Of a stretch of 33,505 nucleotides of DNA, positions 1 through 29,316 are shown piece by piece. This DNA is from a virus (lineage: Duplodnaviria > Caudoviricetes), in the IMG/VR virus record IMGVR_UViG_3300025888_000022, positions 1 through 33,505 of that record. One strand, given 5' to 3'. The notes under the pieces are model-generated. The model was not told the origin of the DNA, did no database searches, and worked only from the letters and a program-made list of their open reading frames with translations. The position numbers were made by a program, and so were the translations under genes. Numbering within the stretch: position 1 is the stretch's first letter; every line of letters begins with the position of its first letter.

Positions 1-391
1 TTCGGATATCCTCTCGAAGAAAGCCGATACCGAGATTGCAATGATGACACAGAAGACCTCGAACCAACTCCGTAGTGTGGTCGTGGTCAACGCGGGGTGT
101 GGTGTCGCCGAAGGGGTTTCCACAGATGGCGCAGCGGTCACCTTGTCGAGTACGCATCTCGTCAACCGCGAGGGGACCGACGCCGTACCTAACTAGTCGA
201 GTCTTCGCCAGAAGTTCGACGTGGTGGGCCTCGCGGTATACCTTGGCATATGCTATGTTTCTCTCTCGGTTAGTCTTGTTGTACTCCGCGAAACACGAAC
301 GACACCGATACTGTAACCCGTCGGGGTTGTGGTTACATTGACTGAAATTAGCCAAGTCCTGCGCGACACCACATTTGGTACAAGTTTTCAT
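1..391 (-). CDS. Recombination endonuclease VII-family (HNH-type) nuclease, truncated by the window edge
   Basis: Not in the ORF track. Manual translation from ATG 391: MKTCTKCG...RCRSC...RYGV...QGDRCAICGNPFGDTTPRVDHDHTTELVRGLLCHHCNLGIG. CAIC, DHDH and VRGLLCxxCN are EndoVII motifs. Confidence 0.88.
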   Translation of the reverse strand, partial: MKTCTKCGVAQDLANFSQCNHNPDGLQYRCRSCFAEYNKTNRERNIAYAKVYREAHHVELLAKTRLVRYGVGPLAVDEMRTRQGDRCAICGNPFGDTTPRVDHDHTTELVRGLLCHHCNLGIGFLREDIR

Positions 392-397
392 AAGGCT

Positions 398-427
398 AGT
401 ATACCACAAATGGCCCAGTCGCGGCAA
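398..427 (-). promoter_or_regulatory. Sigma70-type promoter, probably leaderless, for the EndoVII gene
   Basis: TTGCCG-18-TATACT, then only 6 nt (AGCCTT) to the ATG; no Shine-Dalgarno. Confidence 0.6.
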
Positions 428-440
428 GTTTTTCGCATCA

Positions 441-474
441 AAAACAAGAAACCCCGCGAAAACGCGGGGTTTCT
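441..474 (-). terminator. Intrinsic terminator after the Ala/Thr-rich gene
   Basis: 12-bp stem AGAAACCCCGCG(447-458)/CGCGGGGTTTCT(463-474) with a 4-nt loop, followed by TGTTTTT on the minus strand. Confidence 0.8.
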
Positions 475-497
475 ATGCGTTCGTATGATTGTGGGGA

Positions 498-2264
498 CTA
501 CGACACGCTGTCCTCAGTTGAGACCTCCGCCGATGTATCCTCGTAGCCCGCGTGACGCGCGAGCAGCGTCCACACGCTGCCCTCAGGCAGTTCGTAGGAG
601 TAGTCCCCATCGGCGTCGGCGTAGAACACATACTCGGCGTCCTCGCCGTGATAGACGGTCACGCGACCGTAAGGCATGACGCGTCCGAGTGCCGCACCAT
701 CGGTGTCGAGAGTTGCGGGGGTGATGGACACACCAGTGGCAATCGGCGCTGCGAGTTTGGCGGCAATGGCCGCGAGGGTTGCGTTGTCTGGTGCCGCGAC
801 CATATCGGTATTCGTGGTGGTGGTATCCACTAGCGTCACGCGAGCGATGGTGCGGGTCTGTACCTCGTCGGCTATCGCGTCTGCTGTAATCATCGCGGGC
901 GCGTCGTCGGGCAGGGCTGCGACGATGGCCGTCTGCGCGTCAGAGACGTTCGTCGCTGTGGCGATGCCCGAGAGCGAGGAGATGGGTGTAATGTGGTCCT
1001 GCGTCGCTGCGAGTTGCACGTCGGGGAGCGTCGCAACCTTGACGCCAGCGGTGTCGAGTATCGCCTTGAGCGCCCCGAGTCCGTCCGTGGCGTTGGCGAG
1101 GTCGTCCTTGGCTGCGGTCGCGTCGGCGCAGGAGACGGCGGCGGTCACGGACGCGACAGCGCCCATCGCGCTACCGACGATTGCGAGGCCACCCGTCGCG
1201 CCTGCTGTGGCGTCAGGGACGCGTGTGAGCAGTTCGGTCGTGCCGCTCGTGTCCGCGCCAGCATAGGTGGAACGCGTCGTGACGGCGGCATCGATGCGCC
1301 CGAGTTCGGTGGTGAGGTTCGTGCGTACGGCGGAGGCGACAGCAGCCGCGCTCACATCGCCAGCAGACCAGTCGCCGGACACCTTGTCCGCGATGGCCTG
1401 CAACAGCGTCGAGGAGTCGCCCTCATTGAGGAGCGCCGCTTCTATCTGCGCGGTCGTCGGCGGAACGGTGTAGCCTGCCGTCGCCAGTCGGGTGCTGATA
1501 GCCGTATCTACCCGTCCAAGTTCGGTACCGAGTTCGGTGCGTACTGCGCTCGCGTTGGCGGTGGCAGTCGGGGGAGCGGTGGTGAGCGCATAGCCGGATT
1601 TGTCATTGTTCGTCGTGACGACTACCGCAGGGACCGTTGCGGCCTTGATGCCCGTCGTGACGAGCAGCGTGTTGAGCGCCGACAAGCCATAGGTGGCGAG
1701 GTCGCGCACCGCGCCCGCGATAGCCGTGAGCGCACCAGCAGCGAGCGTGTTGACGGTGCCGATGGTGACGGCAGACTGGTCGGCTGCGAGAGAGAAACCA
1801 GTCTTGGCTGTGACCGATGCCACCGAGCCGACGACGTTGCCGCCGACATTGCCGGTGACGGATGCGACCGAGCCGGTGACGCTGGCGACGGTACCCATGT
1901 TGGAGCCGACTGCGGCGGGCGATGCGGGCAGGTTCACGGTCTTGGCTGCGATACCATCGGCCACGGTATCCACCACAGCCAGCGGAGTGAGCACGTCCTG
2001 ACCGGGATAGTCTGTGACGAGAGTGGTGAGGGTGCCATCAGTCGCCGCAACTACCACCTCATCGGCGTTGCGCTCGGTGGCGGTCAGCGTCAGTTTGTAT
2101 CGCCCGGTCGTCACTATCTCCGTGGCGGCATTCGTGGCGGCGACGGGTGCGGCTCCATCTTTTTGCACGGTCACGGTAAGCGTCAGCCCCGACACGTACT
2201 CGAACGTGGTGGGGTCCCACATCGCGAACGAGATGGTCTGCGCTACGCCTTTGGGGAGACTCAT
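498..2264 (-). CDS. Ala/Thr/Val-rich putative virion structural protein (fibre or decoration) with internal repeats
   Basis: 588 aa. Repeats AVRTELGTELGRVD/AVRTNLTTELGRID, GLSALNTLL..GIKAATVP/GLGALKAIL..GVKVATLP and VASVTG runs. Beta-rich termini. ATGA overlap with the upstream gene. Confidence 0.65.
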   Translation of the reverse strand: MSLPKGVAQTISFAMWDPTTFEYVSGLTLTVTVQKDGAAPVAATNAATEIVTTGRYKLTLTATERNADEVVVAATDGTLTTLVTDYPGQDVLTPLAVVDTVADGIAAKTVNLPASPAAVGSNMGTVASVTGSVASVTGNVGGNVVGSVASVTAKTGFSLAADQSAVTIGTVNTLAAGALTAIAGAVRDLATYGLSALNTLLVTTGIKAATVPAVVVTTNNDKSGYALTTAPPTATANASAVRTELGTELGRVDTAISTRLATAGYTVPPTTAQIEAALLNEGDSSTLLQAIADKVSGDWSAGDVSAAAVASAVRTNLTTELGRIDAAVTTRSTYAGADTSGTTELLTRVPDATAGATGGLAIVGSAMGAVASVTAAVSCADATAAKDDLANATDGLGALKAILDTAGVKVATLPDVQLAATQDHITPISSLSGIATATNVSDAQTAIVAALPDDAPAMITADAIADEVQTRTIARVTLVDTTTTNTDMVAAPDNATLAAIAAKLAAPIATGVSITPATLDTDGAALGRVMPYGRVTVYHGEDAEYVFYADADGDYSYELPEGSVWTLLARHAGYEDTSAEVSTEDSVS

Positions 2265-2569
2265 GAGTCGCTTCCTTCCACGGGTGCGGTCCTTGCGCCG
2301 AAGGGCATCATCGGGTCATTCTCCGCGTCGTCGTCGGGTGTGACTTCGCCCACCGCCACGCCTACGCTGATGCCGCTCTTCCCGTCCACGGGCGGCAGCT
2401 GGTAGACGTAGTGCGTGGTCTGATCGAACGCGGGGATGGCAGCGAACGCCACCCGCTTCGTGCCTGCCGGGGCAGCGACGGTCAGCTCGCTACGCGCACC
2501 CAGCAGACATGGGTTGGCGATCGAGCTCAGCTGCAGCTGCCCGCCGACGAGCTTCCCGTAGCTTTCCAT
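2261..2569 (-). CDS. Small protein downstream of the DGR RT remnant (possible tail-fibre assembly or accessory protein)
   Basis: 102-aa ORF overlapping the RT 3' end and coupled by ATGA to the next gene. Function is a guess. Confidence 0.55.
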   Translation of the reverse strand: MESYGKLVGGQLQLSSIANPCLLGARSELTVAAPAGTKRVAFAAIPAFDQTTHYVYQLPPVDGKSGISVGVAVGEVTPDDDAENDPMMPFGARTAPVEGSDS

Positions 2570-2900
2570 CGAGGCTTACCACCCTTCTTGCATCTGCGAT
2601 CGTCACGATCGGCCTGACGTACTTGTGGTAGAAGCGGTAGCTGTCGGTGTGCTTGATCCAGCCCCAGTAGGAGATGATCGCGGCGGCATCGAGGTAGCTC
2701 AGACGACGCTTCTTCGCGATCCGGCTCACCCGGCGCCGGATCCTTAGGGAGGTGCGGATCTCGATCGCGTAGGAGTCGATGTCCTGAAGGACACGCCTGA
2801 CCTTCGTGTGATCCCGCTTGCCGAGCGACGCCCTTGAGATCGCTTCCTTGATGTTGTCGAGGTCGCAGATCTTCTCGTAGAGGTATCCGTACCGCTTCAA
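2490..2900 (-). pseudogene. DGR reverse transcriptase with an in-frame internal deletion of the catalytic core (136 aa)
   Basis: TTG at 2900 after GAGAAAGAAG. N-terminus MKRYGYLYEKICDLDNIKEAISRASLGKR and C-terminus RIRRR..IAKK..LSYLDAAAIISYWGWIKHTDSYRFYHKY resemble DGR RT ends. They are joined at ..AIEIR/TSLRIRRR with no YxDD or PxG motif. Sits directly downstream of the TR. Confidence 0.85.
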
Positions 2901-3029
2901 GAGTGCTTCTTTCTCATTAGCCTCAGGGTGGTCCGAGCCTTCATCCGGCCTACTAGACCCTGCTCTTTGCGGCGCATTTCTGGCGAGTGCCAAGGAGAGT
3001 GGAGTGCAAGTTCACGTGCTGTCTTCTAA

Positions 3030-3140
3030 TGAGAGTCTGCCTGCCGATGTTCACGTTGGCGTTCGACGACGCGTTGTTGGCGTTCCAGTACCGCAGCCCC
3101 GCGTTCGAGCCGTTGTTCCAGTTGCCGCCGACGATGGCAA
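3030..3140 (-). repeat. DGR template repeat (TR, with IMH*-like 3' end)
   Basis: Reads AIVGGNWNNGSNAGLRYWNANNASSNANVNIGRQTL with 10 AAC codons. The 98-bp core (3043-3140) differs from the VR core (3224-3321) at 15 positions, 14 of them TR adenines. Confidence 0.95.
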
Positions 3141-3170
3141 GCGCGCACTCCAAACCCCTGTAGTTCAAGC

Positions 3171-3189
3171 CGGGGGATGTTCTCCCCCG
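3171..3189 (-). other. GC-rich hairpin/cruciform downstream of VR-IMH (DGR target-recognition element)
   Basis: CGGGGGA-GAACA-TCCCCCG, 7-bp stem and 5-nt loop, 7 nt after the target stop codon; same position as the BPP-1 DGR hairpin. Confidence 0.8.
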
Positions 3190-3196
3190 TGACCCC

Positions 3197-4528
3197 CTAA
3201 AGAGCCTTCCTGAGAAGCCGCCCGCCGATGGACACGTCGGCGAACGACGACGCGTCGCTGGCGTGCCAGTACCGCAGCCCCGCGTACGAGCCGTTAGCCC
3301 AGAAGCCGCCGACGAAGGCAATGCGTTGGCCGGCGGCGGTGTAGTAGTAGTCGCTGTAGTAGGTCGTCGAGGAACCGCCGACCGTTGCGGGGAACTCGGC
3401 ATATGGGTTCGCGGCATCGAAGCCGAGAGCCACGGGGGAGCCGCTCGCGCTGCCGTTGACGTAGCCGAGTTGCACGTACGGGGCGGCGAAGACATTGCTC
3501 GCGTAGTCCGCCGCGTTAGGTGTCACCCACGCTTGGTACTCGTTGATGTTGACGCCATCCACGAACTGCCACACGTCGCCCCACGGCGACTCGATGCCGC
3601 GATAGGAGCAGGGGTACTTGCCGTCGTTGGCCGTGAGGTAGCCGCTCACGGGGCCGGTTGCGAAGCCGTTTCGCCACCCCATGCTCCAGACCACGTTGCC
3701 GACCGCGACATTCACCGCCGCGCCGTCGAAGGTCATCGCCTTGTTGGAGGCGTCGTAGACTTCGATGGCCGCGATGAGGCGATTGGAAGCGACCGACGCG
3801 GAGCCCGTGGCTGTGCCGATGCCGACGCTTTGGCCCACTCGGTAAGCGGCGGCCACGGCGTTGGTGACGATGATGCGGTTGACCGCGTTCTCCGCGACCG
3901 TGGCGGTGTCAGTGGCGGCGTAGGGGCCGACCGTGAACCCAGGCATGACGGCTTGACTGTTGAGCGTAGCGAACTCGACCGTGAACAGCGCAGAGAGCAC
4001 GTCATGAGCGTGGACGTCGAGCTGCTGATAGCCGAGCAGGCCCCCGGTGTTGTTGGCCCGCGCCCGCGTGCGAAACGTGACGATGTTCTGGCTCACGAGC
4101 GGGAAGGTGGACGCCTTGCTATCGAGCGTGGTGCCGCCGGAGGACGCTTTGTACTTCCCGAAGTCGAAGTAGGCCAGCTCGTGGCCATTCGTGAAGTCCC
4201 AGAAGACGGCAGGCAGGTAGAAGCCCGGGTGCTGCGTCTTGGAGATGCGGATGGTGCGATAGCCCACGCCGTCCGTCTTGGCGATGTAGAACTTCGGGAT
4301 CCGCACGAAGACGTTGCCCAGCGTGTCGGTGACTTCGACGATCTCGCTGAAGATGGGCGCGCGGTCGAAGCTGTTGGCCGCAGCGACCCCGCCGAGAGCG
4401 CCCACGGCAGCGGTCATGCCTACGGCGGAGTCGGTGCGGGTCAGCGTCGGGCTACTGCCCTTGCCCCACGACACGCCGAAGATCTCGGTGGTACGAGGCA
4501 CGATGAGATGGAGCGTCGTCGTTGTCAT
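3197..4528 (-). CDS. DGR target protein, C-type-lectin-fold putative receptor-binding or tail-fibre protein
   Basis: 443 aa with GGAGG RBS. Motifs VFVRIPKFY, FGKYKAS, YRGIESPWGDVWQFVDG (GNxWEW-like) and C-terminal GGxW..G..IGGRL carrying the VR. Confidence 0.9.
   Translation of the reverse strand: MTTTTLHLIVPRTTEIFGVSWGKGSSPTLTRTDSAVGMTAAVGALGGVAAANSFDRAPIFSEIVEVTDTLGNVFVRIPKFYIAKTDGVGYRTIRISKTQHPGFYLPAVFWDFTNGHELAYFDFGKYKASSGGTTLDSKASTFPLVSQNIVTFRTRARANNTGGLLGYQQLDVHAHDVLSALFTVEFATLNSQAVMPGFTVGPYAATDTATVAENAVNRIIVTNAVAAAYRVGQSVGIGTATGSASVASNRLIAAIEVYDASNKAMTFDGAAVNVAVGNVVWSMGWRNGFATGPVSGYLTANDGKYPCSYRGIESPWGDVWQFVDGVNINEYQAWVTPNAADYASNVFAAPYVQLGYVNGSASGSPVALGFDAANPYAEFPATVGGSSTTYYSDYYYTAAGQRIAFVGGFWANGSYAGLRYWHASDASSFADVSIGGRLLRKAL
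3211..3321 (-). repeat. DGR variable repeat (VR) at the 3' end of the target gene
   Basis: Encodes AFVGGFWANGSYAGLRYWHASDASSFADVSIGGRLL; colinear with the TR without gaps. Confidence 0.95.
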
Positions 4529-4715
4529 CTAGCCCACCTCCGCGTGTCCGCGAGTGTTGTTCATGTGCGGACTCCTGACGGGAATCATGTTGCTCCTAGA
4601 TACGCCGAAAGACGACGGTCGTCCGTCGTCTGGAGATTCGGTGATGCGCCTTGCCCCTTACGCACCGTGTCGCACCCCGTGTACAGCAGAACCTTGTGCG
4701 CGACCGCCCATACTC

Positions 4716-4805
4716 CTACTTCTTGACTGACTTCTTCAACTTCTTCTTCTTGTCGGCCTTGTCCTTGCCGTCCTTCTTCACAAACGGTGCAGCCTTGTTC
4801 TTCAT
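4716..4805 (-). CDS. 29-aa lysine-rich peptide
   Basis: MKNKAAPFVKKDGKDKADKKKKLKKSVKK; start overlaps the holin stop (TGATG) and is preceded by GAGG. Confidence 0.55.
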   Translation of the reverse strand: MKNKAAPFVKKDGKDKADKKKKLKKSVKK

Positions 4806-5077
4806 CAGGCGTCCTCACCCTCGATGTTGTACTCGTGTTCCTCGACGTAGGCTTCGGCGTTGGCCTTCTGCGCCTGCGCGACCTCGGGCGTACCGGTATC
4901 GACGTTCGTCTTGAGGAACGCCATGAAGTTCGTCAGTCCTGCGAGCACGCCCGTGACAGCCGCCAGAATCCGCAGCATGTCGTCGGTCGAGACTACGCCG
5001 AACGCGGTTAGCGCGATGGCAAGAGCGCCCGCGATTCCGTAGATGGCCTTGCGTCGTTCAGGTGTGAGCCACGCCAT
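4805..5077 (-). CDS. Putative holin (2 TM)
   Basis: MAWLTPERRKAIYGIAGALAIALTAFGVVS..., two hydrophobic helices, charged tail, AAGGAGG RBS; resembles actinophage holins. Confidence 0.7.
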   Translation of the reverse strand: MAWLTPERRKAIYGIAGALAIALTAFGVVSTDDMLRILAAVTGVLAGLTNFMAFLKTNVDTGTPEVAQAQKANAEAYVEEHEYNIEGEDA

Positions 5078-5103
5078 GATGCGCCTCCTTGAATGATGTC
5101 CCC

Positions 5104-5132
5104 ATTATATCAGATGACAACGCATCAGTCCA
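5104..5132 (-). promoter_or_regulatory. Sigma70-type promoter for the holin-DGR unit
   Basis: TGGACT-17-TATAAT. Confidence 0.6.
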
Positions 5133-5133
5133 C

Positions 5134-6600
5134 CTAGACTATGCGCTCGTCCTTGAGTAGGCCAGCCTTCTTAAGCATGACCGCCGTGGGGCGGTCGATG
5201 CGGTCGCCGTGCGCATACACGATGCCATTGTGATGCACCGTGATGCCAAGTTTGATGGGGTAGTGCAGCGGCGGGACACGTACGGGATTCGTCACGATTC
5301 CGAGCGCCGCCCACTTGGCACGCACCCGAACGAGGAGTTCTGCGTAGTTGGCTTGGATGTTCGTGAACGAGTTGCTGTTGAGCGTCCGACCATCCTTGGC
5401 GTAGGTACGATAGTCGAATAGCGTCTCGTGGATGATGTGGACGCGTGCTCCTACGGCAACACAGCGCGTCCAGAAGTCCCAGTCCTCCAGTCCGTCACGC
5501 ATGGACTCGTCATATCCGCCGACCTTCGTCCAGAAGGACTTACGGAACAACGACCCCGAAATGACCTGATTGGCGGCTATAAAATGCTCGATGGCGGGGT
5601 TCGACATTGGGAGTTTCCACCCACCACCGCTCGCGCCGAACGACTTGAGGTCGCAGGACACGATGTCGGCAAGCCCGGCGAGCTTCTCGATGAACTCGGG
5701 ACGCAGCCTGTCGTCGGCATCGAGGCAGACGATGTTCTTGCCCGTGGCCTTGGCGATGCCTGCGTTGCGAGCCGCCGACACGCCGCCGTTCTTCCGCTGC
5801 CGGACGAGCGTCACGGGATACCGCTTGGCGACCTTCGCCGTGTCGTCAGTACTAGCGTCGTCCACCACGATAATCTCGATGGGTGGCTCGGTCTGCGCGA
5901 GGACGGACTCGATGGCCTCAGCGAGGAACTGACCTTGGTTGTAGCACGGGATGACCACCGAGGTCTTGTGCTTCCACGAGTAGGCCCAGTGGTGGACGCC
6001 GTAGGTGTCGGTAGTCACGCACTTCGGGTCGAACGCGCCCTTGTCGTGCCACGAGTAGGGGTAGAACCGTTTGGAGTTGAGCAGCCGCACGCCCGCTATG
6101 GTCGCGTCGGCGTCGGTGCGCTTCCACCCGTGCTTCGCGAGCAGGTTCGTGAACATCCTCGGACCGAGTTCGTTCTCGACCGCCGTATGGTCGTAGTCGA
6201 GGGAGTCCATGTAGTCAAGACATTCACGGATGAACGGATGCCCTGCAACTGCGCCCAACACGCCGCACGCGGCCCAGATGCAGTTCGGGCCGTCGTTCTC
6301 GACACCGATGAACGCGTCGTACGCGAGCAGGTCGCCAAAATCACGCAGCACGTCCACGTCGAGGTCGAGGTAGATGCCGCCCGTCTCATACAACTTCGCC
6401 CAACACGCGTACTGTGCCGAGTTGACGATGATGCCACGGTCACGCATCGCTCGTGTACAGCGGGACGACGGGATGTCGTCATCATCGAGAAGATGAATCT
6501 CGTAGTCAGGAAACCGTTTCCGCCACGACTGGATGTAACAGTGGACCGAAGGCAGGGGGTCGTCACCACACCACGCTGCGTAGATTCGCTTAGGAATCAT
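5134..6600 (-). CDS. Two-domain glycosyltransferase (GT32/DXD-type N-terminal plus GT2 C-terminal)
   Basis: MIPKRIYAAW, LYETGGIYLDLDV and HHWAYSW (GT32-like); SVVIPCYNQ, IIVVDDASTD, NGGVSAARNAGI, LDADD and EDWDFW (GT2). Confidence 0.92.
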   Translation of the reverse strand: MIPKRIYAAWCGDDPLPSVHCYIQSWRKRFPDYEIHLLDDDDIPSSRCTRAMRDRGIIVNSAQYACWAKLYETGGIYLDLDVDVLRDFGDLLAYDAFIGVENDGPNCIWAACGVLGAVAGHPFIRECLDYMDSLDYDHTAVENELGPRMFTNLLAKHGWKRTDADATIAGVRLLNSKRFYPYSWHDKGAFDPKCVTTDTYGVHHWAYSWKHKTSVVIPCYNQGQFLAEAIESVLAQTEPPIEIIVVDDASTDDTAKVAKRYPVTLVRQRKNGGVSAARNAGIAKATGKNIVCLDADDRLRPEFIEKLAGLADIVSCDLKSFGASGGGWKLPMSNPAIEHFIAANQVISGSLFRKSFWTKVGGYDESMRDGLEDWDFWTRCVAVGARVHIIHETLFDYRTYAKDGRTLNSNSFTNIQANYAELLVRVRAKWAALGIVTNPVRVPPLHYPIKLGITVHHNGIVYAHGDRIDRPTAVMLKKAGLLKDERIV

Positions 6601-7508
6601 GTGTTGTACTCCGCCATCATACGAATGGCAGCAGGGGTGAGCCAGTAGTCGTTATAGTCACTATGCTCCGCCACGACAGTCCCGTCCCCGTGTCCGCGCT
6701 CGACTATCCAGTATGTCCCCGCGTCCCTAGCGTCGGGGGCCTCGTTGTCGGTGATAAGGCATTCGTGCAACTGCTCCCCCGCACGCGCCCCTATCTCGCG
6801 CACCGTGCAGTCGGGGGCCAGCGCCGCCGCTACGTCCGTGAGGTGGTAACTCGGCATCTTAGGCACGAACATCTCTCCGTTGCGCCCCTCACGGATGGCA
6901 GTCAGCACCATACCGACCGCCTCGTCAGGAGTGATGCTGTAGCGGGTCATCTTCGAGTCAGTGATGGTGATTTCCGCCCCCGCTGCGGCCTGCGCCTGAA
7001 ACAGCGGCACGACGCTGCCCCTGCTGCCGAATATGTTGCCACAGCGCACCACACAGCCCGCTGTTGGGCCTTCCGGGAGCGAGAGGAACAGCCGCTCGGC
7101 GATGAGTTTCGTGGCTCCGTAGACGTTGGTGGGCCGCGCCGCTTTGTCGGTGGACAGCGCGACCACGAGCGGGATTTTCTCCGCTGTGGCGGCACAAACG
7201 ACGTTGTACGACCCCCCGATGTTCGAGTTGATGGCCTCTATCGGGTTCTCCTCGCACGCAGGCACCTGTTTCATGGCCGCAGCGTGGACCACCACGTCGA
7301 TTCCCCGCATCGCGGCCTTCAGACGCGAAAGGTCGCGCACATCACCCACGACGAAGCGCAGACGCGGGTCATTCCCGAATGACGCGGCCATCTCACCCTG
7401 CTTGAACTCGTCACGGCTGTAGACGGTGATTGTGTGCGTTCGGTCAAGCGTCGTTTGACAAAACGCCTGTCCGAACGACCCCGTTCCGCCTGTTATGAGA
7501 ATGTTCAT
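6597..7508 (-). CDS. pseB: UDP-GlcNAc 4,6-dehydratase (PseB/FlaA1/CapD-type SDR)
   Basis: Start re-called to ATG 7508 (ATGA overlap). GGTGSFG, SRDEFKQ, GDVRD, HAAAMKQVP, LSTDKA, YGATK, GSRGSVVPLF and ITD..MTR motifs. Symbol is family-level only. Confidence 0.85.
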   Translation of the reverse strand: MNILITGGTGSFGQAFCQTTLDRTHTITVYSRDEFKQGEMAASFGNDPRLRFVVGDVRDLSRLKAAMRGIDVVVHAAAMKQVPACEENPIEAINSNIGGSYNVVCAATAEKIPLVVALSTDKAARPTNVYGATKLIAERLFLSLPEGPTAGCVVRCGNIFGSRGSVVPLFQAQAAAGAEITITDSKMTRYSITPDEAVGMVLTAIREGRNGEMFVPKMPSYHLTDVAAALAPDCTVREIGARAGEQLHECLITDNEAPDARDAGTYWIVERGHGDGTVVAEHSDYNDYWLTPAAIRMMAEYNT

Positions 7509-8116
7509 CTCGCTGATGTCGGCCAAAGTACTCCCTCTTTCGTCAGATGTCCGCAAAGACAGTCCCAATCGGCCCTCAGCCCCGGTATGGGCTGCATGAA
7601 ACACTGGTGGGGCGTGTGCCGCGCCGTTTTGCGGTACATCTCGCCCGTCGTGAGCAGGCAGTAGTGCCCACAGTAGTCGATGTCCTCGACTCCGCTGCCC
7701 GCAACGAGCGGGTGGCCGTCCCGATAGACCCCACACAGCGCGTTGCCCCACCTAGAGACCTGTATGCCTGTCGAGTGAGGACCGACGGCACTGAGGCGGG
7801 CGTACACGTCGGGTGGGACGATGGTGTCATCGTCGAGGATGAGCAGTTCCCCGTCGGGGACGAGTCCGATGGTGTACGCACGCATCTCATCGTGCTCGAT
7901 ACGCCGCCCGAGGCGGTCCTCGCAGGGTACTCCCCTGTCTCGGAGGTGTACCTCGACTCGAAATCCCATCTCGCCCAGCGTATCGGCCCACAGTCCACAC
8001 CCCGGAGCGTCAAGCACAAGGATACAGCGCCCACGGGGGATGTCGGACGCCGCGATAGCCGCGCAAACGGCCTCGCGCGCCCACGGACGGGTGACTGGGA
8101 GTAGTAAAGTCAGCAT
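7505..8116 (-). CDS. Putative GT-A fold glycosyltransferase
   Basis: N-terminal LLLPVTR strand, LLILDDDTIVPPD (DxD), C-terminal D..CGH; first gene of the glycosylation operon. Confidence 0.65.
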   Translation of the reverse strand: MLTLLLPVTRPWAREAVCAAIAASDIPRGRCILVLDAPGCGLWADTLGEMGFRVEVHLRDRGVPCEDRLGRRIEHDEMRAYTIGLVPDGELLILDDDTIVPPDVYARLSAVGPHSTGIQVSRWGNALCGVYRDGHPLVAGSGVEDIDYCGHYCLLTTGEMYRKTARHTPHQCFMQPIPGLRADWDCLCGHLTKEGVLWPTSAR

Positions 8117-9646: not shown

Positions 9647-10143
9647 GCATCAAAGAACACGAGGCTGCGATACTGCGTGAGGCGCTCGACCGTAACACAG
9701 TGGACACGATGATGTTGGAGGGTACGGGAATCGACGAACCTGTCGGCCTGCTCTACGACCGCGATATCCTCGACCTCGCAGGCGACCCGCTGGACTGGCC
9801 GCTGGAGGAAAGGCCGATGGCGTATCTTGCCGGGTATTACACAGCCAACCCCGCACAGGGTATTGCCAACGCGGCACGGTGGTTTCAACCGCTGACTGAC
9901 GCCGGTTGGTTGACTGTGATTCCTCACGTCAACATTCTACTCGATATGTTGGCTCCGCAGACCCCCAATTTTTGGTACCGGCATGACATGGGCCTTCTCT
10001 CGCGCTGCGACGCAATCTTCATCTGCCCCGACTACCTGACGGCCCACTCGACAGGGGTTCTCAACGAGATTGCGTTCGCAACCAAGCACGAAATCCCCGT
10101 GTTCTACGATGTGATTTTGGCGAAGGACCGCTATGCTCTGTGA
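9643..10143 (+). CDS. Nucleoside 2-deoxyribosyltransferase-like (DUF4406/DUF1937) protein
   Basis: GTG start overlapping the previous stop; YLAGYY, IPH, LLSRCDAI and STG...E..FA...IPVF motifs. Confidence 0.75.
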   Translation: MSIKEHEAAILREALDRNTVDTMMLEGTGIDEPVGLLYDRDILDLAGDPLDWPLEERPMAYLAGYYTANPAQGIANAARWFQPLTDAGWLTVIPHVNILLDMLAPQTPNFWYRHDMGLLSRCDAIFICPDYLTAHSTGVLNEIAFATKHEIPVFYDVILAKDRYAL

Positions 10144-10654
10144 GTGTGGTTGCGGTGAACTCACCAACCTAGCACCGCAGACCGTGACTGCAAAAGGTTG
10201 GGTCAAAGGCGAACCCGTGCGTTTCATCAAGGGACATCAATGTAGACTCTCCCCTGTCGAGTATCTAGAACAGGACATGGGTTACGAGACCCCGTGTTGG
10301 GTGTGGCAGCGAAGTATCGCGCCAAGTGGGTATGGTTGTGTCAGGGTGACGGGAAAGACCCGGACTGCGCACAGTGTCTACTGGGAGCGCGAGAATGGCC
10401 CAATACCCACCGGGTTGCAGTTGGACCACCTCTGTCGTAACCGCGCGTGTGTTCGACCGTCACATTTGGAACCCGTGACTCAGACGGAGAATGTGAGGCG
10501 GGGTGCCCACACTATTCTGAACTCGTGTCAGGTCCAGTTCATCAAACAACTCATCGGCTCGATTCCTCATGGAAAAATCGGAACGATGTTTGGGGTGGCG
10601 CGCTACGTGATAAGCGACATCGCCAACGGGCGCACATGGAAGGACGTGGCGTAA
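10133..10654 (+). CDS. HNH homing-type endonuclease (GYETPCW family) with N-terminal CECGCG and C-terminal HTH
   Basis: GYETPCWVW, AHSVYWERENGPIP, LDHLCRNRACVRPSHLEPVTQTEN. Confidence 0.88.
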   Translation: MLCECGCGELTNLAPQTVTAKGWVKGEPVRFIKGHQCRLSPVEYLEQDMGYETPCWVWQRSIAPSGYGCVRVTGKTRTAHSVYWERENGPIPTGLQLDHLCRNRACVRPSHLEPVTQTENVRRGAHTILNSCQVQFIKQLIGSIPHGKIGTMFGVARYVISDIANGRTWKDVA

Positions 10655-20577: not shown

Positions 20578-21018
20578 ATGACAAAGAAATCCACAGGTCG
20601 TCCGCCCAAATCTATCGCCGAGTACATCGTCGAGGATAGAGGCTACGAGACCCCCTGTTGGGTGTGGCAACGCTCGCTAGTGATGGGGTACGGGTCTCTG
20701 CGTATCGCTCGCAAGACGTACTACGCCCACCGTGTCTACTGGGAGCGCGAGAACGGCCCGATTCCCGAGGGGCTTGACCTAGACCACCTTTGCCGCGTGC
20801 GGGCGTGCTGTAACCCCGCGCACACAGAACCAGTAACCCGAGCCGAGAATCTACGCAGGGGGTGTCGAACCAAGTTGAATCAAGAATCTGTGCGGGACAT
20901 CAGAACGCGCTACGCCGCCGGGGGGATACTTCAGCGTGAACTCGCCACCGAGTACGGCGTCAGTCCCATCACCATCGGGTCTGTTCTTGCCCGACGTAGT
21001 TGGAAGGATGTTTTCTGA
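20578..21018 (+). CDS. HNH endonuclease (GYETPCW family) with C-terminal HTH
   Basis: GYETPCWVW, AHRVYWERENGPIP, LDHLCRVRACCNPAHTEPVTRAEN. Confidence 0.88.
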   Translation: MTKKSTGRPPKSIAEYIVEDRGYETPCWVWQRSLVMGYGSLRIARKTYYAHRVYWERENGPIPEGLDLDHLCRVRACCNPAHTEPVTRAENLRRGCRTKLNQESVRDIRTRYAAGGILQRELATEYGVSPITIGSVLARRSWKDVF

Positions 21019-22415: not shown

Positions 22416-22657
22416 CCGACTGTGGAGACATCATCTACAAGTACCTGATTGACAACGGGTACGACGGACTGGCGGGCGATGACTGCGGGTGCGGCATCGA
22501 CGACCTGATGGTTTGTGACGAGTGCAACCCCGAGTGTCAACCCGCGTTCCACTACACGCTCGACAACTGTCCGCGAGAGTTCTGTGAGATGCGGGGAGCG
22601 TGTGCGGGCTACGGGTGCTACCGCACCGCAAAACCTGAGATTGAGGTGGCACGATGA
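22412..22657 (+). CDS. Cys-rich phage protein
   Basis: YL..NGYDGL..CGC..DDL..C; GAGGAG RBS. Confidence 0.7.
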   Translation: MTDCGDIIYKYLIDNGYDGLAGDDCGCGIDDLMVCDECNPECQPAFHYTLDNCPREFCEMRGACAGYGCYRTAKPEIEVAR

Positions 22658-23127
22658 CCGACGCACGCACCGACGACGCATCGCCCCGATTCCTCCGTCA
22701 CCGCAAGTCCGCAGTCCACTACGTTGTGCAGGACTGTGGCTACGAGACCCCGTGTTGGGTGTGGCAAGGGGCGCAGAACTCGCGCGGCTACGGCAGACTT
22801 GTTGACGGCGACAGGTTCCGTTTCGCGCATCGTGTCTACTGGGAGAGCGCACACGGCGAACACCTCCCGGACGAAATCGAACTACACCACTTGTGCGAAA
22901 ACCACTCGTGCGTCAACCCTTCTCACACGGAGCCGCTGACGAGACTCGCCCATGCGCTCAAGTCGCGTTCGACGCGGCTGTCCCCCGCTGACATTGTAGA
23001 CATTCGACGCAGAACTGACACGAGGGAACCACAGCGCGCCGTGGCGAAACGGTACGGTGTCAGCGTGGACTACATCGGTCAGATACACCGCCGCAAGCGG
23101 TGGACGTTCGTACCAGAGGAGGCGTGA
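22654..23127 (+). CDS. HNH endonuclease (GYETPCW family)
   Basis: GYETPCWVW, AHRVYWE, LHHLCENHSCVNPSHTEPLTRLAH, C-terminal HTH. Confidence 0.85.
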   Translation: MTDARTDDASPRFLRHRKSAVHYVVQDCGYETPCWVWQGAQNSRGYGRLVDGDRFRFAHRVYWESAHGEHLPDEIELHHLCENHSCVNPSHTEPLTRLAHALKSRSTRLSPADIVDIRRRTDTREPQRAVAKRYGVSVDYIGQIHRRKRWTFVPEEA

Positions 23128-28577: not shown

Positions 28578-28787
28578 ATGTCAAAGCAATCGGTCCCCTG
28601 TCATCGTTGTGGATTCCCTGCGCGCAGGGGAGCGCTACCCATCCTCTGGCGCAGTGATGAAACTGGTACTGGACGCGCGGCGTTTTGTAGTGTAGCGTGT
28701 CTGGAAGCGGCACTCGGTGGACATCTACGCGAACCGTGGCGCGCACTTCAACTAGCCGTCGAGGATGCAACCCAACCTTCTCAATAG
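28578..28787 (+). CDS. Small zinc-finger protein
   Basis: CHRCG...FCSVAC (TRASH/FCS-like); GAGG RBS. Confidence 0.6.
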   Translation: MSKQSVPCHRCGFPARRGALPILWRSDETGTGRAAFCSVACLEAALGGHLREPWRALQLAVEDATQPSQ

Positions 28788-28806
28788 GAAAGCAAAGGTT
28801 CACAAA

Positions 28807-29316
28807 ATGAAGCCATCGCGGGGCAGGATAGACCAAGACAAATATGACTGGGTTGAGATACCCGGTTCTCCCAAGTATTATGCGTGCCGTGAAGGATTCA
28901 TCCTTGGGAAGTTTGGACGTATACTTCAGCCGTGGGCGCTACGCGGCGGGTATCGACAAGTGCAGACGTGCAGCGGGCGGTACTGCGTTCATGCTCTCAT
29001 CGCGCGCTGTTTTATTCCTAATCCGGACAACAAACCACAGGTCAACCACAAAAACTCCACGAGGTCAGATAACTGCGCGGAGAACTTGGAGTGGGTAACT
29101 GCAAAAGAGAATCTGGCCCACGCGGTTGCACATGACCGAATGGCGCGCGGTGAACGGAATCCGAACCACAAGTTGACGGAGGCGTCCGTTCGGACGATAC
29201 GCGCGGCCACGGGTATACCACAACGCACACTGGCGTTGGAATACGGGGTGTCGCAGGCGACCGTGTGGAGCGTGTTGCACGGAGATACGTGGACTCGCGT
29301 GGCGATGTCGGCATGA
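28807..29316 (+). CDS. HNH homing endonuclease (NUMOD4/I-HmuI-like) upstream of the DNA polymerase
   Basis: W..IPG...Y; VHALIARCFIPNPDNKPQVNHKN..RSDN..ENLEWVT.KEN..HA; C-terminal HTH. Confidence 0.88.
   Translation: MKPSRGRIDQDKYDWVEIPGSPKYYACREGFILGKFGRILQPWALRGGYRQVQTCSGRYCVHALIARCFIPNPDNKPQVNHKNSTRSDNCAENLEWVTAKENLAHAVAHDRMARGERNPNHKLTEASVRTIRAATGIPQRTLALEYGVSQATVWSVLHGDTWTRVAMSA

Follow-up and report, generated by a model that had tools for sequence, protein, structure and literature searches.

Inactivated DGRs are common in the literature (PMC5758913, PMC3521204, PMC10907252). Over half of the candidate DGRs of one survey were set aside as broken or incomplete (Wu 2018, PMC5758913), weaker selection for activity has been proposed once a target is well adapted (Schillinger 2012, PMC3521204), and 50-75% of DGRs are given as active, with the caution that selection can hide activity (Roux 2021, PMC8144416). 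The RT motifs of DGRs are described in PMC5737381, and activity in trans is discussed for the DGR loci of Thiohalocapsa PB-PSB1 (Dore 2024, PMC10907252). The open-licence papers, taken without their supplements, yielded no report of mapped recurrent RT-core deletions in phage DGRs, and PMC12629997 and PMC11792537 hold nothing further on deletions. A single dead DGR is of little weight, since such wrecks are already in print.

The locus described here lies on a stretch of 33,505 nt from a tailed phage (Caudoviricetes; record IMGVR_UViG_3300025888_000022), hereafter the window, which is a single viral contig, rated linear and 67% complete. With architecture A1 and the avd-less Lineage 3 of Wu 2018 (PMC5758913, as far as that source goes) it shares the gene order target-TR-RT with no avd, differences between TR and VR that are specific to adenines, and a VR at the 3' end of the target. 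No accessory gene is present at the locus, as architecture A1 demands; the RT of the window, however, is broken, and the likeness comes from architecture and not from an RT tree. The locus is most likely a recently dead, frozen avd-less phage DGR, that is, a case of ordinary decay and not a new kind of mini-element.

Organization of the locus and the deletion in its RT

Besides replication and HNH genes, the contig carries a holin-like gene and one for a RecE-like exonuclease; it has no tRNA or tmRNA gene. Four of the eight listed runs, those with larger shares of positions 1500-5500, are peat metagenomes. The DGR sits in an apparent single minus-strand operon that would extend from a promoter-like element (5132-5104) to a terminator-like one (474-447), both recognised as consensus matches only, and the leader at 4530-4712 gave neither covariation (3 sequences) nor an Rfam match. 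The features of the locus are collected in Table 1.

Table 1. Features of the DGR locus in the window (positions in the 33,505-nt stretch).
Feature	Position	Strand	Remarks
Downstream gene, 102 aa	2261..2569	-	Last RT codons contain its start codon and probably its ribosome-binding site
RT remnant, 136 aa, TTG start at 2900	2490..2900	-	N-terminal 48 residues joined in frame to thumb and tail
Deletion junction, one leftover RTSL repeat copy	2745..2756	-	Break can be placed only inside the repeat
TR-RT spacer RNA, Rfam RT-18 (RF03021), full length	2910..2992	-	52.9 bits (gathering threshold 41.3)
TR, undecayed	3030..3140	-	10 AAY codons, the modal number in intact relatives
GC-rich hairpin directly 3' of the target stop	3168..3191	-	Fold of -9.4 kcal/mol
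VR, 111 nt, IMH-like stretch at its end	3211..3321	-	Changed at 17/27 TR adenines and 2/84 other bases
DGR target gene, 443 aa	3197..4528	-	PHROG 5302 'tail protein', E 1e-45

The target is probably a tail receptor-binding protein with the C-type lectin-like fold of DGR variable proteins. Its AlphaFold model (pLDDT 86) has as its best fold match TaqVP, the DGR variable protein of Thermus aquaticus (5vf4, E 1e-10), to which it is also weakly similar in sequence over the VR (E 0.2); identity is 13% and the TM score about 0.45-0.5, meaning that only part of the chain is shared. The VR stops 14 nt short of the end of this gene and lies upstream of the TR at a spacing of 181 nt; no second VR was found elsewhere in the contig, where the best other score was 14, against 80.

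Adenine-specific homing has operated here in the past. In the 98-nt core (TR positions 3140-3043), VR and TR differ at 14 of 23 TR adenines and at one of 75 other bases, C3115 (Fisher p 3e-10), exactly the 14 adenines and one non-adenine that an earlier note on this DNA had counted, and the full 111-nt repeat has the same bias (Table 1). The VR, its IMH-like end, the GC hairpin, the TR and the TR-RT spacer named in that note were all recovered, so the structured cis elements of a DGR, a hairpin after the VR and a spacer RNA after the TR, are present. The hairpin fold has a z score of -2.75 and was equalled in 1 of 200 shuffles, and a similar hairpin of a G-run and a C-run follows the target stop in most intact relatives. 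The RT-18 RNA of the spacer also occurs in the intact relatives L002 and L038. Minimum free energy folding of the spacer alone is no better than that of shuffles (z +1.24), and its structure is therefore claimed on the strength of the Rfam match. The note was also correct that avd is missing between target and TR; that absence does not belong to the damage. Among 71 relatives that are intact or cut by a contig end, 68 have a TR no more than 235 nt from the VR, too close for avd to fit between target and TR, and judged by these spacings the absence of avd is the norm among these target relatives, a trait of architecture A1.

The damage lies in the RT. The 136-aa frame described earlier, in frame and without YxDD, aligns with full-length DGR RTs as an N-terminus plus a thumb. 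Fingers and palm, with the SQ motif and YVDD, are missing, and the product has no Pfam or NCBIfam match. The nearest full-length RT, P0002, carries the IGxxxSQ motif, has the RT of 8ub7 as its best PDB match (E 5.5e-26), and is 91% identical to the remnant in alignment A1 and 92% over the thumb part. Compared with P0002, 231 codons (693 nt) have been lost between the RTSL at residue 74 and that at residue 305; from the equivalent start (residue 26) P0002 has 367 aa, and 367 minus 231 gives 136. A functional autonomous DGR requires a full RT with SQ and YxDD, which this locus lacks; the element is thus a DGR by descent but not a functional autonomous one.

The junction is real, as judged from contigs and not from raw reads. 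It is bridged by unbroken single contigs of two sequencing runs, X1 (2556-2995, depth 12.7) and X2 (2556-3228, depth 15.3), and neither run has another contig over it. These copies differ from the window elsewhere, X1 at 5 letters and X2 at 2, and so do not represent one data set copied. Among viral contigs, locus L001 is the sole exact match to the junction pattern; it has 2 differences from the window between 4552 and 2201. Upstream of about 4550 it is identical to another locus, L150, and is therefore either a recombinant or a chimeric assembly. An assembly collapse or library chimera hiding a phage with a full RT could draw on this possible chimera and on the use of contigs in place of reads, but with a repeat of about 12 nt at most, two bridging runs at those depths and copies that vary independently, it is hardly credible. 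The deletion that the earlier note had weighed against assembly collapse is thus borne out by the contigs of both runs and by L001.

As to how the deletion arose, recombination or slippage between the short RTSL repeats would account for it. Phage recombinases are able to join short repeats, and the RecE-like exonuclease of this phage is a candidate agent. A contig of run X5 comes from an intact relative with about 95% DNA likeness; it follows the window as far as 2749, where it passes into the RT core, and it shares 8 nt with the junction (by hand), the parental DNA on the thumb side lying outside this comparison. The open frame follows from the joining of two in-frame RTSL repeats and needs no selection to explain it. 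In-frame repeats flanking the whole catalytic core could also suggest a built-in excision site, a programmed or reversible switch turning the DGR off. Against this, P0002 is the only one of 154 full-length relatives in which RTSL occurs twice, which marks the pair as a chance repeat, and all other lesions of the family have other ends; the idea is largely refuted and extremely improbable. In the preferred reading, an ordinary avd-less DGR (target-hairpin-TR-spacer-RT) has lost 231 RT codons including the catalytic core, which has likely switched off target mutation. The absence of decay in TR and spacer RNA suggests that the loss is recent.

State of the VR and the search for a helper RT

The VR is monomorphic, with the same allele in five assemblies (the window, L001, X1, X2 and X3) and 0 differences over the VR region in L001, X1 (3021-3480), X2 (3199-3480) and X3 (3206-3422, depth 2.3); the comparison was made across assembled contigs and not reads, such contigs drop rare variants, and the five assemblies may share one sampling campaign. 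Among intact relatives, the near-identical L020, L024 and L053 show 5-19 VR differences but 0-1 in the preceding 400 nt, L007 and L160 show 21 against 5, and in one intact lineage all 12 of the 12 listed VRs differ (by eye). Several intact groups also have 0 VR differences, some of them being the same contig filed twice, and a static VR alone is therefore no proof of inactivity.

Where one lesion is shared, one VR is shared, and near-identical targets with different lesions differ in VR: L174 and L176 by 22 differences against 0 in the 400 nt before, the L032 and L040 groups by 12 against 0-3. The closest relative, L150, carries another VR allele with 19 differences, 18 of them at TR adenines, and a second contig of X2 and the listed sites of X3 fit that allele (hand check, three sites). 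L150, X3 and X4 have a different deletion, a gap 427 nt larger at a 5-nt repeat, which breaks the TR; this is why 2640-3000 is uncovered in X3 and X4. The tip of the tail protein is likely stuck in its last variant, and the switched-off DGR that the earlier note had offered as one of its readings is right as a state, given the monomorphic VR and the lack of a helper RT.

Alternatively, the locus could be a non-autonomous DGR: its TR-spacer RNA would still be made, a co-infecting sibling phage or a prophage would lend a full RT, and the VR would mutate from time to time. With TR, RT-18 and hairpin undamaged, an RT acting in trans could use the RNA; close intact RTs exist, as P0002 and the X5 relative illustrate; two other loci, L176 and L028, likewise keep TR and RT-18 but lack a working RT; and action in trans has been demonstrated with BPP-1 components and is inferred for Thiohalocapsa, according to the parts of PMC5758913 and PMC10907252 on the subject. 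The search for such a helper was negative throughout. No RVT_1 match occurs in the window's own record, which is 67% complete, and no second contig covers the 5' part of the RT at 80% likeness in X1, X2 or X3, which argues against an intact sibling in those runs. Likewise, no RT of the same clade was found for three relatives with a broken DGR, in their records G001, G002 and G004, of which G001 is an isolate genome whose prophage carries TR and RT-18 and whose other matches are 22% identical. Further points against borrowing are the identity of the VR in the five assemblies and, among target relatives, the absence of any enrichment for deletions that spare TR and RT-18 (see below). In X2 a second VR allele adjoins the same unbroken junction contig, unphased, but the target of that allele also differs outside the VR; recombination suffices to explain it and trans-homing is unneeded.

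The parasitic mini-DGR of the earlier note thus fits the intact TR and RT-18 and the existence of close siblings, has gained no positive evidence, and is unlikely. An extension of it, a cheater DGR that by itself stays locked on a good variant and depends for hypermutation on the RT of a co-infecting intact sibling, is quite unlikely too; if it were true, the RT-only deletions (window, L176 and L028) and the 27 core-less RTs described below would point to borrowing as a widespread strategy, in which the fusion protein might also be a competitor for the RNA.

Repeated loss of the cassette among relatives of the target gene

Searches with the target gene gave 163 loci (66, 79 and 18), including the window's own record and duplicates. 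A usable target end is present in 144 of them (19 lack one), in 84 clusters, and by DGR state these comprise 65 intact loci, 29 with a remnant, 38 with none and 12 that are cut or too short. On a quick target tree of 74 rows the DGR states need 30 changes, a number as low in 47 of 200 shuffles, and are thus unclustered; the tree holds well-supported sister pairs of which one member is intact and the other has lost the DGR. Homologues of the 102-aa downstream gene follow the target in relatives both with and without a DGR.

A hand tally among these relatives gives fourteen distinct deletions with some TR or RT sequence left behind (the window, L150, L005, L008, L014, L028, L030, L032, L052, L172, L176, L198, L217 and L225). 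The tally leaves out the hairpin-only loci L017, L157, L159 and L175, L194, where the contig ends, the point lesions L174, L213 and L038, and L237, whose end is misplaced. The deletion of L172 lies at an 8-nt repeat (by eye). TR and RT-18 are both spared in four of the 14 (window, L028, L172 and L176), with L225 marginal, on a scan of 10 loci. This count of 4-5 compares with 61% expected under a uniform-breakpoint model (P 0.014-0.049), which is crude, given that lesions may be multi-step; inclusion of the hairpin-only rows (n=18) gives P 0.004. Eleven of the 14 deletions end in the last RT quarter or the RT tail (P 0.001, same model). Such clustering fits the position of the next gene, whose start lies inside the RT tail, and the retention of the RT 3' end in several deletions would have the same cause.

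The 136-aa protein has relatives of its own kind. A search with it gave 398 matches, and among the 150 listed, 27 are short in-frame fusions of N-terminus and thumb, a few of which still carry the catalytic motif; a search with the remnant favours such fusions by design. A search for homologues of near length missed them, its one match among 118 candidates being a C-terminal fragment that keeps YVDD, and a profile search with alignment A1 listed 120 matches, all full length, and is uninformative for core-less forms. Independent core-less homologues, to which the earlier note had looked, therefore exist; their junctions are scattered, with left breaks at profile positions 17-188, right breaks at 180-311 and lengths of 64-271 aa, and one parent RT has given rise to three different fusions. 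On a weak tree (14 of the 28 short rows kept, 84 columns) the 14 short rows need 12 changes, much as shuffles do. Of ten fusions looked up, seven stand alone in their clusters and two are widespread, on about 15 and 17 contigs. For the viral lineage of one of these two, the RT is intact at 18 of 22 loci, and the remaining 4 lack different parts of it. With neither a shared junction nor a single clade, the core-less RTs do not form a conserved mini-RT family, and on alignment evidence they read as products of repeated deletion with occasional spread.

This bears on whether the fusion was retained because it binds RNA or because it inhibits full DGR RTs in a dominant-negative manner, the functional mini-RT of the earlier note. 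The frame is open and the start retained, the 27 fusions include the two widespread ones, and in BPP-1, in the part of 10.1101/2023.10.23.563531 concerned with these contacts, the N-terminal extension and the thumb both touch RNA, yet the same source has the RT-binding stem contacted by the palm as well. The AlphaFold model of the remnant is helical (pLDDT 72), but with a pTM of just 0.54 it is not taken as evidence of function. Within the remnant, the X2 copy differs by two synonymous and 0 non-synonymous changes, too few for a selection test. Set against these points, the breaks and lengths of the other fusions are scattered, three different fusions come from one parent RT, the short forms are not clustered on the weak tree, and an in-frame fusion occurs in only one of the 14 deletions, that of the window, and is absent from its closest relative L150; retention for function is very unlikely.

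Under the preferred reading of ordinary decay, a tip that fits a stable receptor may make the cassette dispensable, which would lead to its repeated loss among target-gene relatives, whether by drift or by mild selection against more mutagenesis. As a whole, the deletion that the earlier note described is real, and its frozen state fits the monomorphic VR and the failure to find a helper RT. The value of the survey is that a single family of tail genes covers the full life cycle of a DGR, from intact through 14 mapped deletions to clean absence; sister genomes differ in DGR state, and each lesion has its own frozen VR. Two questions become testable in this way: whether selection for lock-in or neutral change underlies DGR loss, and whether the RT-18 RNA of a sibling can be served in trans by an RT that lacks avd.

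Comparison with described systems

The BPP-1 DGR (10.1101/2023.10.23.563531; 8ub7), within what that source covers, shares with the locus the RT family, a tail-protein target and an RNA in the TR-RT spacer. BPP-1 needs Avd and has an RT-10 RNA (PMC5737381, in its relevant part), whereas the relatives of the window have no avd and carry RT-18.

The degenerate DGRs of Thiohalocapsa PB-PSB1, as set out in the relevant portion of PMC10907252, likewise have a deleted or disrupted RT, and populations hold intact and broken variants side by side. Those loci are cellular and transposon-driven and have an intact DGR of the same class in the genome; the window, in contrast, belongs to a phage, has a deletion at a short repeat, and yielded no helper in the contigs and genomes searched. 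In the truncated RTs of the DiGReF survey (Schillinger 2012, PMC3521204), a recently inactivated RT likewise stands beside a clean TR and VR. The lesions reported there are insertions, nonsense mutations and frameshifts, whereas that of the window is an in-frame internal deletion.

Lesions of the template repeat and possible dependence in trans

A trans-dependent form, in which the DGR would borrow its RT from another element, has its cleanest candidate in L176, a relative recovered through its target (tail protein) gene, from which ~998 nt comprising almost the entire RT are gone, while the template repeat (TR) and the spacer RNA RT-18 are retained. Its target is near-identical to that of L174, a relative whose RT is interrupted by a stop, with 0 differences across the 400 nt before the variable repeat (VR) and 22 within it.

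Among the 14 different deletions tallied by hand in this family, that of the window included, five start inside the 111-nt TR (L005, L008, L014, L030 and L150), as compared with a share of 15% expected under a crude uniform-breakpoint model (P = 0.05), and the TR may be a fragile site connected with homing. Another altered TR is that of L038, where both RT and RT-18 are intact and the repeat holds just 4 AAY codons (10 in the window, the commonest count among intact relatives) and one stop codon, and differs from the VR at 9 non-adenine positions. The template itself seems to have been overwritten by mutagenized cDNA; alternatively, the assembly mixed reads from the VR and the TR.

The slot after the target and other genes

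Since an unrelated ORF occupies the usual place of the DGR directly past the target stop in L031, L155, L179 and L052, mobile inserts may have a hot spot at this site; in the first three the ORF was judged by eye to be HNH-like. In L235, a 134-aa ORF fills a target-TR gap of unusual length (offset 637). The window itself carries several nuclease genes (see table), and DNA repeats are common to three of its HNH genes and to a stretch at the right end of the contig. The glycosyltransferase and epimerase pair perhaps serves virion or host-surface glycosylation.

Positions of the genes and the altered repeat discussed in the text
Feature	Genome	Position	Remark
Nuclease genes	Window	10133-10654, 20578-21018, 22654-23127, 28765-29316, 2-427	At least 4 HNH-type and 1 endonuclease VII
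Glycosyltransferase gene and nucleotide-sugar epimerase gene	Window	5134-7751	Immediately upstream of holin and tail operon
Altered TR	L038	~55-165 nt past target stop at 3572	

Read depth, variants and mosaic structure

Window positions 4526-4813, which include a small lysine-rich ORF, are covered at a depth of 440-490 in both X1 and X2 (the peat metagenome runs bridging the junction of the RT deletion) versus ~12 nearby. This cover comes from a short contig ~85-90% alike, which is either an abundant relative or a repeated leader; an Rfam scan of the region gave no match, and no covariation was found among 3 sequences of the leader at 4530-4712. The main contig of X1 carries a 5-letter variant in RT-18, located in its variable end hairpin (window 2943-2948); the same run shows a minor insertion of 2 bases at 3008.

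When compared over positions 1-7500, the window and L150, its closest relative, diverge by 10-40% except in blocks around 4050-4540 and 2000-2611, where the two are identical. L001, which has the same deletion junction as the window, changes from L150-type to window-type near 4550, as a recombinant or a chimeric assembly would. Judged by these alternating blocks, the three read as mosaic genomes over this stretch.
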